The notes under the pieces: generated by a model
The model's database searches: none
What the model was told of the DNA's origin: nothing
Seen by the model: only the letters and a program-made list of their open reading frames with translations
In this document: piece after piece, positions 15,332 through 59,790 of the stretch
Numbering within the stretch: position 1 is the first letter of the stretch
Layout: every line of letters begins with the position of its first letter
NCBI GenBank assembly: GCA_951406725.2
Contig: OX597833.1
Location: forward strand, 29,760,001 to 29,824,000
DNA from: Octopus vulgaris
Lineage: Eukaryota
Direction: 5' to 3'
DNA length: 64,000 bases
Made by a program: the position numbers and the translations under genes

Positions 15332-15993
15332 TATATATATGTGTGTACATATATATATATATATATATATATATATATAGATTTATATATATATATGTAT
15401 ATGTATATATATATATTACGACGTTTCTCTCTCTATATATAAATATAAATTAGTCTGCAAATTATCCTACATTCCAAAACATATAATACGTATGTACATA
15501 TTAGTATGTTTAAATGGAAAAAAAGTTTATATGTATATATATATATATATATATATATGTTTGTGCATATATGTATGTGTGCATATGCATATATACATTC
15601 CTCATGTGTGTGCAGATTAGTTTTGACATAACTGTAATAACTGTATGATATATTGATATATTGATAGTAAAATTACTATCCTTATAACTTTCAAAAATAT
15701 CTGTATATATATTATATTCTATATTCTATGTACTATCTGTTGTGAATAACAGAATGCGTCTAATATTAATAATATTAGTAATAACTGAATATTATATATG
15801 CTTATGGATGTAGATATGTATGTATGTATATTTCAGTATATATATATATATATATATACATATATATATATATAAGTATTTATGTACATCTATATATGTA
15901 TGTATATTTATATCTATATATATAAATATTCAAATGTGTGTGTATTTTATTTATTTATATTTATATTTATTATAACTTAACATTATGTATTGT

Positions 15994-16122
15994 ATAATCT
16001 CTGACGAAGCCTAGAGGTATATACAAGTACCTCATGTTCATCTACTTATTACTTCAGTCCACCTGAGTAATAAAGGTAGAATGAGGTATTTTTATCTATT
16101 GGCTGAAACAGCTGTAAGTTAT
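15994..16122 (+). ncRNA. Type I hammerhead ribozyme with 97-nt stem II, in a ~630-bp AT-rich element (~15875-16505)
   Basis: ataatct-CTGACGA(16001)-agcc...ggct-GAAA(16105)-cagctg-TA-agttat. Stem II interior pairs taga/tcta, tacctcat/atgaggta, tctac/gtaga, ttattact/agtaataa. Predicted cut after GUA at 16116. Confidence 0.85.
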
Positions 16123-16608
16123 TTTCCCAATATATATTCATGTTTTTTATAATAATTACTGGTATCCTTATATATTACTATATTTTATATCTTATATTTT
16201 ATATGTAAAGAATAATTGTATGTATATTATTGTAATTATCAGTTTAGTAAATAAATAAATAAGTTAACATAATATAATGTCTAAAAGTTGATGAACCACT
16301 TATTGATCTCCTCCATTTTCTTATTGGTCTATAAATTAATAGTAAAATATCTCTTTACCTTCACCCGTTTAGTATACTAGGTAATGTAATTGTAATGCAA
16401 TAAAAAACACTTGTGTATTAATAATTGGGTATTCTACCAGCAGTATATTAGATAGATATTATCCCTTAGTGGGTTGGATTCACAACCTCTAACTTTCTTG
16501 GAGTTATATATATATATATATATATATATATATATATATATATATATATATATCAGAAATATTAAATTTCTAAATATCTCATAGAGATATGTACGGTGGT
16601 GGGGCGAT

Positions 16609-16906
16609 AGAGTGGTTGTATACTGTCAACTTAACGTGACAGTAAGGGAATTACACCACCGCTGTTTAGCCCTAGGAAGCATCGACGTTTCCTGTCAGCC
16701 TCGACCACCGCTGTTTAGCCGTAGGAAGCATCGACGTTTCCTGTCAGCCTCGACCACCGCTGTTTAGCCGTAGGAAGCATCGACGTTTCCTGTCGGCCTC
16801 GACAAATGTGTCGAGGCTGACAGGAAACGTTGATGCTTCCTAGGGCTAAACAGCGGTGGTGTAATTCCCTTACTGTCACGTTAAGTTTACAGTATACAAC
16901 CACTCT
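16609..16906. repeat. Foldback palindrome with three 49-bp tandem units in the left arm
   Basis: agagtggttgtatactg...gcctcgaca-aatg-tgtcgaggc...cagtatacaaccactct; tandem units at 16657, 16706 and 16755. Confidence 0.95.
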
Positions 16907-17019
16907 CTCTCTCTCTCTCTCTCTCTCTCTATAAATATATATATATATATATGATAGTTGACTTTTTCAAACTTGCAGACATCTTTTGGGTTTTTTATTT
17001 TTATGATTTTAAATACATT

Positions 17020-17230
17020 TAAGTGGCAAGCTGGCTGAATTATTAGCATGCCAAATGAAATGCTTAGTGGCATTTCATCTGTCTTTGTGTTCTGAGTGTG
17101 AATTTTGTCAAGGTTGACTGTACCTTTCATCCTTTTGGGTTCAATAAAATTAGTACCACTGGAGTCGATGTAAATGACTTATCCCTACCCTGAAATTGCT
17201 GGACTTGTGTAAAAATTTGAAACCATTATT
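17020..17230 (+). mobile_element. MetaSINE-like tRNA-derived SINE
   Basis: Core cctttcatccttttgggttcaataaaattagtacca. Other copies at ~17690-17885(-), 28950-29165(+), 36780-36970(-) and 48777-48946(+). Confidence 0.7.
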
Positions 17231-56700: not shown

Positions 56701-58174
56701 AATTTATTACTTGATAATTTGAAAAGACAAAAATAGTCATTACTTAAAAACTTTTGATCTTAAGTCTACTCAGTCAAGCCCACTCGGAATTAAAACAGTA
56801 AAAATATTCGAGCATATTTAATGTTGCATCGGTCAATATAAAGATCTTGTTAACACCCAGCAGGCTGGTTTATTATTATTATTATTTTTTGTTCACGGGT
56901 GAAGATCTTTATATTTTGTCTTTTATTTATATTATATTAAAATTTCTTTTGACTCCTTGTCAGTTTTTCTTGGTAAGCTGGGATATTTCTTGGAAGGCTG
57001 TAAATTCAAATCGCTCACTGCAACATGAGTTGGTCTTGGGTTTAACTTTCAAGAAATCAGAAACATTTGCGTAACTTGCATCCTCGTGTTATTTTCGGTC
57101 CTTCTGTCGTCGACAGTACTTTTGTCAACGGGTTGCATACGTATGAACTGTCAACATTGTAGAGTAAATGCAACGTGTTCATATCGACAAGCAAGCATAT
57201 TTTACGCGGTGATGGCAAAATCTGTCAATTGAATACTGGACAAAATGTGCCTTACGGTTTTTATATATATCCTTTTTTTCCAATGTTGGACTACAGAAAG
57301 AGCAACTAAATCATTCTCATTTGGCAGCCTACGTTTTTGAAAAGGAAAAAAAGAATCTCACAGCGAATAAAATAGTCCAGGTTACTTTATCGGCGGGGGA
57401 AAACGATATGTCACGGATGAATTGCCAGATCTATAGGTCTCCACGATTAGAGTTCAACAATTAGTTTGATTACTATGTTTGCGATTGCACCCCCCCTTCC
57501 GCGACAATAAAATACCAGAATAAGGTGAAAGATGTAAGTGATGAAGTTAACTTTAACAGCTAACTTGACAAATTTACAGTTTTGTAATGTTTCCATTCGT
57601 GATTCTGCAGTGTTAGGATCATCTCAATATATTCTGAGCGCAGATATGGGAGAGGTCGATTTTACTTTTCATTTCTTTTCAACATTTAAGTAAACTTTTG
57701 TGCGCTACGTTTCAGTCAGTTCACTATGTATATGTGTGTGTATATGTATAATGCATGTATATGTCTATGCATGTATGCCTATATATATATATATATATAT
57801 TGGTAAAAACGGTAAGATAACAAAAGAAAGAAACAGACCTCAGTATTATGTAAATAGAGGAATTTATCTGTAAATTAATATGTTACCATTATTCAATAGC
57901 CAAATTGGTAACATTATTAATTTACAGATATATATATATATATGTATGTATATATATATATATATATATATATATATATAGACTTTATGTTGACTGATGA
58001 TAGAGTATGGACGGATTTTTGAAGTCCAATGGTACCCTACACACATATTTGATTGTGGAGATTTACAAACACACTTTCTCAGTGAAACTCAATATACCCA
58101 CCATTATAGATAATACCAAATGTACATTTTCGGATTTTTCATAATGTGATGTAAGTCTTTGGTATAGCAATTGC

Positions 58175-58270
58175 ATGTGGCTGAAGAGAGCTTTAAACCA
58201 TCTGTTATGTCGATTATAGATTGATGTAAGAATAGGTTGTTGTATAAAGCTTGAAACACGTGTACCGCGA
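58175..58270 (+). ncRNA. Type I hammerhead ribozyme with 65-nt stem II, in element ~57982-58384
   Basis: gtgg-CTGAAGA(58181)-gagcttta...taaagctt-GAAA(58253)-cacgtg-TA-ccgc; predicted cut after GUA at 58264. Confidence 0.85.
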
Positions 58271-58384
58271 CATCCTTTGAGTTCTGTTTTTTATTTCATT
58301 TGATGCATATAACCTCTCACCTCTGCTACTAGTTGCCATATACAGGTGCTTACACTTATGTATTCACACTGAATTTATTGTACC

Positions 58385-59618
58385 TATATGTATGTATATA
58401 TATATATATATGTATGTATATATATATATATATGTATGTATATATATATATATATGTATGTATATATATATATATATATGTATATATATATGTATGTATA
58501 TATATATATATATATATATTATGTATATATATATGTATGTATATATATATATATATTATATATATATATATATATATATATATATATATATATATATATA
58601 TATATATATATATATATATATATATATTATTATATATATATATATATATATATATATATATATATATATATATATATATATATATATATATTATATATAT
58701 ATATATATATATATATATATATATATATATATATATATATATATATATATATATATATATATATATATATATATATATATATATATATATATATATATAT
58801 ATATATATATATATATATATATATATATATATATATATATATATATATATATATATATATATATATATATATATATATATATATATATATATATATATAT
58901 ATATATATATATATATATATATATATATATATATATATATATATATATATATATATATATATATATATATATATATATATATATATATATATATATATAT
59001 ATATATATATATATATATTATATATATATATATATATATGTATATATATGTGCATGTATATATATGTATGTATATATATGTATATGTATATATATGTATG
59101 TATATGTATATATATGTATGTATATGTATATATATGTATGTATATGTATATATATGTATATGTATATATATGTATATATATGTATATGTATATATATGTA
59201 TATGTATATATATGTATATGTATATATATGTATATGTATATATATGTATATATATGTATATATATGTATATGTATATATATGTATATATATGTATATATA
59301 TGTATATGTATATATATGTATATATATGTATATATATAAATATATGTATGTATGTATATATATGTATATATATAAATATATGTATGTATATATATGTATA
59401 TATATATATGTATATATATATATGTATATATATGTGTATATATATATATGTATATATATGTATATATACATGTATATATATATGTATATATATGTTTATG
59501 TATATATATGTATATGTATATATATGTATATATATATATATGTATATATATGTATATATATATATATGTATATATATATATATATGTATATATATATATA
59601 TATGTATATATATATATA
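58385..59618. repeat. ~1.23-kb (TA)n / TA-TG microsatellite with a nearly pure TA core
   Basis: Read directly; nearly pure TA from ~58557 to 59039. Confidence 0.98.
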
Positions 59619-59790
59619 GTATAGAAATTCGGGGTGAGTACTTGATAATTATAAGCACCTGTGTATACCGTTTCGTGGTGTAGGTGGTGGAGTAAATTGA
59701 TCAAAATAAAATAAAAACATGATGCGAAGGATTCAGCGGTACATATGTTTCGGGCCTTTATTAGACAGATTTATAACAATGCATAATGTA
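59619..59790 (-). mobile_element. Relative of the 57982-58384 element carrying only the 3' half of a hammerhead
   Basis: Minus strand aaaggccc-GAAA-catatg-TA-ccgctgaatcc...tatacacaggtgctta aligns with GAAA-cacgtg-TA-ccgcgacatcc...catatacaggtgctta. Confidence 0.7.

Follow-up and report, generated by a model that had tools for sequence, protein, structure and literature searches.

What kind of mobile element leaves six hammerhead ribozyme motifs in one short piece of an octopus genome? The question is raised by a stretch of 64,000 nt of Octopus vulgaris DNA (GenBank assembly GCA_951406725.2, contig OX597833.1, positions 29,760,001 to 29,824,000 of the forward strand; hereafter the window), for which an initial annotation had proposed a diverse set of non-autonomous, retrozyme-like families mobilized in trans by Penelope-type enzymes. 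Searches of the assembly itself—2.8 Gb on 227 contigs, with 40 loci scored per family—place each motif within a dispersed repeat family, named here by its core in the window: F1 (16001), F2 (20318), F3 (21484), F4 (58181), F5 (59751), and F6 (18976). The explanation in which we have high confidence is that F1, F4, and F2 are 5′-truncated 3′ ends of Hydra-type Penelope-like elements, that F5 is likely the same, and that F3 is a 486-nt unit likely copied in trans.

The motifs and their repeat families

Hammerhead motifs are confirmed at all six named positions (16001+, 18976−, 20318−, 21484+, 58181+, and 59751−), with a complete type I fold at 16001+, 21484+, and 58181+. At 20318−, the core letters are intact, but stem II is degraded (z −0.2) and stem III shows no self-complementarity in the window copy. 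The initial annotation thus placed the motifs correctly and described this copy too favorably: its stems are decayed, and the self-complementary stem III ascribed to every motif, palindromic at 16001 and 21484, is absent here. A strict descriptor finds 58181 alone (mean of 0.01 matches in 100 block-wise dinucleotide shuffles), a tolerant one finds 16001 and 58181 (two matches; mean of 0.05 in 200 shuffles), and a third one, which allows for one core mismatch, finds 16001, 21484, and 58181 together with two spurious sites near 51176. The 20318 motif is missed by all three descriptors because of its decayed stems. An Rfam scan of the window gives no hammerhead at E ≤ 1; its matches are miRNA families only, which we reject as microsatellite-driven. 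At positions 16600–16905, 49-bp units stand three times in tandem before an inverted copy that makes a long hairpin, the source of spurious MIR5200 matches.

Genome-wide, patterns that combine a core, a stem II domain of 45–72 or 80–105 nt, and a stem III loop of six bases match 24,453 and 4,817 times, respectively, versus 118 and 107 times for the reversed patterns. These 29,270 long-stem-II cores against 225 controls amount to about one per 96 kb and represent, among those listed, many different families. Hence, the hammerhead density of the window is ordinary for this genome. Tens of thousands of long-stem-II hammerheads escape Rfam, and since such forms are invisible to it, hammerhead counts in genomes of this kind are likely too low. 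Could the motifs be chance matches in AT-rich sequence? The window does contain 30 core-box sites, and 20318 fails every descriptor; however, the shuffle controls, the family-wide conservation, the compensatory changes described below, and the excess over reversed patterns leave this idea a negligible probability.

First-look candidates number 1540 for F1, 845 for F2, 1012 for F3, 1452 for F4, 1542 for F5, and 443 for F6. The best 30 loci per family include 25 (F1), 15 (F2), 29 (F3), and 27 (F4) in which both the core and the closing pair are intact. The core, three stems, and UH cut site of a type I hammerhead are all present in the window copies of F1, F3, and F4 and at the family level in F2 and F5, but not in F6, which lacks A9. 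F1 to F4 insert in a common fashion, their 3′ ends being sharp, their 5′ ends ragged, and an inverted piece often lying upstream (6, 9, 11, and 15 of 30 loci, respectively). A (TA)4 or longer run lies in the 3′-terminal window of 24, 19, 29, and 28 of the 30 loci—above the rates of 0.30, 0.14, 0.22, and 0.37 in downstream control windows—which bears out the suggested enrichment of (TA)n at the flanks. For F1, F2, and F4, the 5′ ends are ragged over >2 kb, and no short period sets them.

Coding Hydra-type elements and their probable truncated ends

The F1 element of the window (15416–16505, plus strand) appears to be the 5′-truncated 3′ end—noncoding region plus tail—of a Hydra-clade Penelope-like element. 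It spans ~1.1 kb and ends in (TA)n; the 0.2–0.7 kb between TA boundaries given initially falls short, as the TA tracts at 15528 and 15808 are internal and not terminal. Its type I hammerhead (15994–16122, core 16001) bears a 97-nt stem II domain and a palindromic stem III, with a predicted cut after 16116. Walking upstream from F1 in the genome leads to a reverse transcriptase (RT) fragment, P0002, which in turn leads to numerous open frames, the longest of 994 aa. The locus L236 harbors an intact open reading frame (ORF) of 947 aa, P0003, in a 5.58-kb unit with ~2.7 kb of noncoding sequence and a ribozyme copy on either side, which is alignable with the F1 ribozyme.

The last part of F1 (16331–16505) is an optional tail that corresponds to the 5′ untranslated region (UTR) of the next unit, being 72–76% identical to the L236 5′ UTR. 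Ten near-identical F1 tails were fetched, nine of which end in (TA)n, while the tenth (L259) enters an ORF start; there, the tail is 96% identical to F1 and the ORF start beyond it 64% (29/45) identical to P0003. The P0003 element is a sister subfamily of F1. F1 has two preferred 3′ ends at ~+330 and ~+505, and these, like the two of F3 described below, match the optional tail attributed to two internal RT start sites in an account of another Penelope-like element (PMC11167929). In L016, what looked like the C-terminus of an endonuclease, 600 nt upstream of the F1 core, was rejected, as no open frame persists across 25 copies. About 10–20 kb before the window, a further Hydra element (L243, G000:C20:29740500-29750499) bears RT, an F1-like ribozyme (75%), and inverted arms.

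Judged from motifs and 75 homologs, a named one of which (39%) comes from Argonauta hians, P0003 is a single ORF with RT followed by an endonuclease of the GIY-YIG type at the C-terminus; Pfam scans assign no family to P0003 or to P0001, the query used for F2 below, and the ESM Atlas holds no usable match for P0001. The Hydra clade is defined by RWK, DKT in place of DKG, a CxCX5C linker, CxxC and CxH, the lack of CCHH, canonical hammerheads, and (TA)n insertion (PMC8557442). P0003 carries RWR and DKT, its homologs RWK or RWR and DKT; the CxCX5C linker and CxxC/CxH around a conserved E and N, without CCHH, are found in P0003 and in the parent frame of F4 (L250) alike. The hammerhead resides near the 3′ end on the sense strand, as in Hydra elements. 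The length of the L236 unit departs from the <3 kb of the clade, a trait that is typical but not strict. Thus, the P0003 element and the F4 parent look like members of the Hydra clade. Both carry Asn-rich inserts.

F4 (57981–58384, plus strand) appears to be a 5′-truncated 3′ end as well, here of a second Hydra-clade lineage, whose noncoding 3′ region is long. It ends in a 1.2-kb TA tract (58385–59623), on the two sides of which the 3′ ends of F4 and F5 are found. Its type I hammerhead (58175–58269, core 58181) has a 65-nt stem II domain and a predicted cut after 58264. The noncoding region reaches >2 kb upstream, where a Hydra-type endonuclease end lies at two independent loci (37% and 41% identical to P0003), one of which continues to a copy 90% identical to the window F4, the other being traced short of the ribozyme. 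In L032 and L033, the break of the inverted F4 arm lies at the stem I foot, 5–8 nt upstream of the core, and RT may stall there. A third Hydra lineage is seen in L227 (7932–9478, minus strand), with an endonuclease end and, 1.1 kb later, a ribozyme whose stem II has 60 nt; the F4 noncoding region in L216 contains a nested copy of this lineage.

F5 (59620–59790, minus strand) is truncated inside stem II in the window, while copies elsewhere hold the whole ribozyme. It is a sister of F4, 68–72% identical over the ribozyme and the 3′ part—a relation that qualifies the earlier statement that most of the elements are unrelated in sequence—and is likely a truncated Hydra-type 3′ end by this homology. 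The family is very young, with its 40 scored loci at 99–100%. The 1855-bp spacing of two F5 copies was discarded as a unit length, since it stems from a local duplication including flanks.

F2 (20210–20707, minus strand, core 20318) appears to be an old 5′-truncated Hydra-type 3′ end flanked by TA tracts. Although annotated as free of ORFs, it holds a remnant of a GIY-YIG endonuclease C-terminus at 20602–20497 (tblastn with P0001: 80% over 20 aa and 56% over 16 aa). The consensus of the family is a clean hammerhead, and longer translated copies show a GIY-YIG C-terminal frame upstream of the ribozyme, for which the genome has 15,978 first-look candidates. In L228, L229, L231, and L233, long Asn/Ser/Thr-rich low-complexity open frames precede the F2 endonuclease frames. 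F6 (18838–19010, minus strand, core 18976) is a fragment of a dispersed family. Its description as a single decayed core holds insofar as A9 is lost; this loss is family-wide, however, with an identical A9-less core in seven of eight fetched copies and a more decayed one in the eighth; the family spread with a core lacking A9.

Four of these families share a long stem II. Its domain measures 97 nt in F1, 85 nt in L236, 65 nt in F4, and 51 nt in F5, with folding z values against mononucleotide shuffles of −5.7, −7.2, −3.7, and −2.3, respectively. Stem III is weak in the monomer (+0.4 to +3.0 kcal/mol) and stronger in the dimer (−4 to −12 kcal/mol), except for the decayed window F2, as has been described for Penelope hammerheads (PMC4209133, PMC6765202). 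Covariation, counted for the F1 lineage only, gives changes on both sides in 9 of 27 stem II pairs among 13 sequences, and 91.5% of the stem II cells are paired versus 31–44% with partners slid; the counted pairs of stems I and III are invariant. The conserved core and stem covariation anticipated for such families are hence found in this lineage, and the compensatory changes support, but do not prove, selection on structure.

The 486-nt unit F3

F3 occupies 21085–21672 (plus strand) with 1.2 periods of a 486–487-nt noncoding head-to-tail unit—as evident from the direct repeat 21085–21183/21573–21671—and ends in (TA)n. An inverted 5′ arm including the tail (20936–21084, minus strand) precedes it and adjoins (TA)n as well. 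The type I hammerhead (21479–21539, core 21484) has a stem II domain of merely 29 nt and an odd-palindrome stem III, with a predicted cut after 21534. Sixteen of 30 loci, including two same-place pairs, show a head-to-tail junction upstream of the ribozyme, L069 is a natural copy with two ribozymes, and the longest stop-to-stop frame is 50 codons. Does the unit join an ORF elsewhere? Of 82 exact genome matches to the motif that follows the tail, 69 reach the core at the spacing of the unit; of the other 13, ten were fetched and all continue along the F3 unit with point changes, deletions, or interruptions, and the last three fall inside F3 loci already in the set. No ORF-linked F3 copy was found among the matches examined. 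By sequence, F3 is therefore the sole true noncoding unit among the six and would work like a non-LTR (long terminal repeat) retrozyme, its circular RNA being only predicted.

The 3′ ends of F3 prefer two places, near +187 to +200 and near +290. These two fixed 3′ ends at (TA)n, the 5′ truncation, and the inverted arms are Penelope insertion marks, for which reason mobilization in trans by a Penelope-type enzyme is likely. Local amplification of a satellite or other DNA-level repeat born from a Penelope end, proposed as a route elsewhere (bioRxiv 10.64898/2026.07.22.740005), would account for the head-to-tail copies; as F3 copies sit on many contigs with one to two periods each, have inverted arms and 5′ ends that are ragged, and stop at (TA)n at two fixed 3′ positions, we deem this origin very improbable.

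Which template is copied? As a classical retrozyme, F3 would be cut and circularized, the 486-nt circle would serve as the template, and its life cycle would hinge on ribozyme cleavage—a proposal that concerns F3 only and is compatible with our explanation of the other families. The monomer between the predicted cut sites does fold as a circle at −119.1 kcal/mol compared with −92.2 ± 5.4 for 60 shuffles (z −4.9), 29 of 30 loci retain an intact core and closing pair, copies of more than one period (four rows at three places) cross the upstream cut site as if made from a circular template, and retrozyme circles have been shown for mussel, coral, and axolotl (PMC7229834; Cervera and de la Pena 2020). 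The crossing itself, however, indicates a template that is either uncut or circular, and an uncut tandem transcript explains the same insertions. Furthermore, the 5′ ends range from −68 to −593 (29 of 30 loci mapped) without a pile-up at the cut site at −435, only one or two of 30 lying near it, and the junction is also present in genomic DNA. It is found in contigs of four public sequencing runs, none of them on record as RNA and one of which bears a different organism label and a diverged F3 unit. Elsewhere, ribozyme mutants had no effect on insertion in vitro (PMC11167929), and only one of nine Xenopus dimers was cleaved (bioRxiv 10.64898/2026.07.22.740005). A cut and circularized template for F3 is thus possible but rather doubtful.

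L275 (G000:C4:21072251-21072510) is a diverged F3-like tandem unit lacking the entire ribozyme, and contigs of public runs also point to shorter sister units. Beside F3, positions 21690–22075 of the window hold another repeat, whose plus strand has a hammerhead-like 3′ half near 21709 and whose minus strand has a core box in decay; with relatives in L035 and L048, it is possibly a further Penelope end. A second candidate noncoding tandem unit is seen at G000:C1:5011305-5012441, where three hammerhead cores of one family follow each other with a 534-bp period. Those window ORFs that were scanned (20 of 84) are LINE (long interspersed nuclear element) and DNA-transposon remains. LINE-type endonuclease and RT frames at 59904–63792 (minus strand), 1474–5027 (plus strand), and 48979–50754 (plus strand), one of 777 codons, are unrelated to the hammerheads.

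Weight of the evidence and comparison with known systems

How, then, does the view that all six are non-autonomous families mobilized in trans compare with an origin from truncated Hydra-type ends? The window copies are short and mostly noncoding, and F3 fits the former view fully. On the contrary, the genome has copies of F1, F2, and F4 that are joined to Hydra-type coding sequence—which substantiates the link to Penelope RT/GIY-YIG proteins made by the initial annotation—and their ragged 5′ ends are not periodic. For F1 and F4, trans-mobilization is largely refuted, and for all six together it is improbable. What remains of the retrozyme-like set is F3, while F1, F2, and F4 are truncated ends of coding Hydra-clade elements and F5 a sister of F4; the opposite case raised at the outset, namely truncated ends of autonomous Penelope families, largely holds for F1, F4, and F2, though not for F3.

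Some points weigh against our explanation, the first of which speak for mobilization in trans at the same time. No RT was seen in the 10-kb stretches of five F2 loci, L226 and L230 join RT sequence to the F1 noncoding region without an endonuclease, and neither F5 nor F6 was traced to a parent ORF in the own-genome searches. A whole intact copy of the exact F1 subfamily was not seen among the loci examined. In the F2 frame, CxH is present and other copies add CxxC, but a CxCX5C linker is not evident; given this and the missing RT nearby, F2 may be an RT-less derivative. F3 shows no similarity to the examined Hydra loci at E ≤ 1e-4 and no blastx match, so that its partner is deduced from insertion marks only. 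Part of the TA adjacency may have been made at or after insertion, as TA tracts also occur inside the elements and adjacency was judged from occupied sites alone. The stem II evidence is limited since the structure was derived from the same related sequences and the shuffle counts are no probabilities; four of seven single-sequence folds (F3, F2, F6, and F5) are not clearly beyond shuffles in energy. Finally, the 30-locus sets are top matches per family and no random sample, and their loci are partly non-independent: six F4 loci are one segmental duplicate, and L069/L070, L088/L089, L095/L114, and L103/L119 are same-place pairs.

Truncated Hydra-type ends could arise as follows. By analogy with described elements (PMC11167929, PMC8557442), a tandem copy would be transcribed and the GIY-YIG domain would nick TA-rich DNA. 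RT would then begin at either of two internal RNA sites downstream of the ribozyme, whence the optional tail, and would mostly halt early, so that ribozyme-bearing stubs remain. Cleavage by the ribozymes would be slow, probably in dimers that pair through the palindromic stem III. Insertion probably does not depend on it, as suggested by the A9-less core with which F6 spread and by the ribozyme mutants that still insert in vitro (PMC11167929). The long conserved stem II is a predicted structural or protein-binding element.

A bolder reading, which we offer tentatively and consider unlikely as a whole, is a large Hydra radiation with a long conserved stem II and young noncoding hitch-hikers, in which F3 RNA—an uncut or circular template copied from two internal start sites—is inserted into (TA)n by the Hydra RT-endonuclease. 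If true, intact young Hydra ORFs and F3 in one genome would permit a direct test of the enzyme that mobilizes animal retrozymes, and the ribozyme as a protein-binding scaffold more than a cutter could be probed through F6. In any case, with young intact ORFs and a broken-core family at hand, one can test what the ribozyme does in Penelope transposition. Because every Penelope insertion mark is found on a noncoding unit, F3 lends genomic support to the proposed, unproven mobilization of animal retrozymes by Penelope-like enzymes.

F3 resembles metazoan retrozymes (PMC7229834; bioRxiv 10.64898/2026.07.22.740005) in having a noncoding head-to-tail unit that is a few hundred bases long and contains one type I hammerhead, a low GC content, a predicted highly paired circle, and co-occurring Penelope-like elements. 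It differs from them (PMC7229834; Li, Clavereau and Pollet preprint) by dispersed insertions of one to two periods with tail, inverted arms, and TA ends and by the lack of long arrays. Its ribozyme is of the Hydra pattern, unlike the retrozymes of PMC7229834, and its circular RNA is a predicted one. The other five window elements are, unlike retrozymes, not tandem units.

With Poseidon of Anolis carolinensis (Frangieh et al. 2024, PMC11167929), the elements share two fixed 3′ ends past the ribozyme and AT-rich targets. Poseidon belongs to another clade, however, with an ORF that starts inside the ribozyme and RT that starts in the ORF, whereas here the tail is a 5′ UTR of 100–175 nt and ~600 nt separate the core from the ORF start. 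The minimal hammerheads of Penelope elements (PMC4209133; Cervera and de la Pena 2014) are likewise of type I, have a helix III that is palindromic and weak, carry an additional base at the helix II foot, and occur as opposite-strand pairs 100–700 bp apart; their helix II has 6–8 bp compared with a multi-segment hairpin of up to 97 nt here.

The closest relatives are found in the Hydra clade (PMC8557442), the sole relevant source in a literature search on octopus hammerheads, Penelope, Hydra, and extended stem II that covered works other than subscription papers, Repbase, and Dfam. The Octopus bimaculoides family Hydra-1_Obim (Craig et al. 2021), with 2507 bp, (TA)n, and a listed ribozyme, means that hammerhead-bearing, TA-targeting octopus Hydra elements are already published; the window families look like further, longer members, and the kind of element is hence less novel than first judged. 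By eye, the Hydra-1_Obim ribozyme matches none of the six window ribozymes. Common to these elements and the clade are RT followed by GIY-YIG, the RWK-like, DKT, and cysteine motifs without CCHH, the 3′-end hammerhead with palindromic stem III, (TA)n ends, and inverted 5′ arms. The F3 ribozyme itself shows the Hydra pattern of File S2, with an unpaired base at the foot of stem II and an odd-palindrome stem III. In contrast to the generally <3 kb of the clade, the unit described here has 5.58 kb with a 947-aa ORF bearing Asn-rich inserts and ~2.7 kb of noncoding sequence, and stem II measures 51–97 nt in four families versus at most ~25 nt for the Hydra entries of File S2 (by eye). The 5.6-kb unit, the 51–97-nt stem II with compensatory changes, the ~29,000 cores, and the A9-less family set these elements apart from published Hydra elements.

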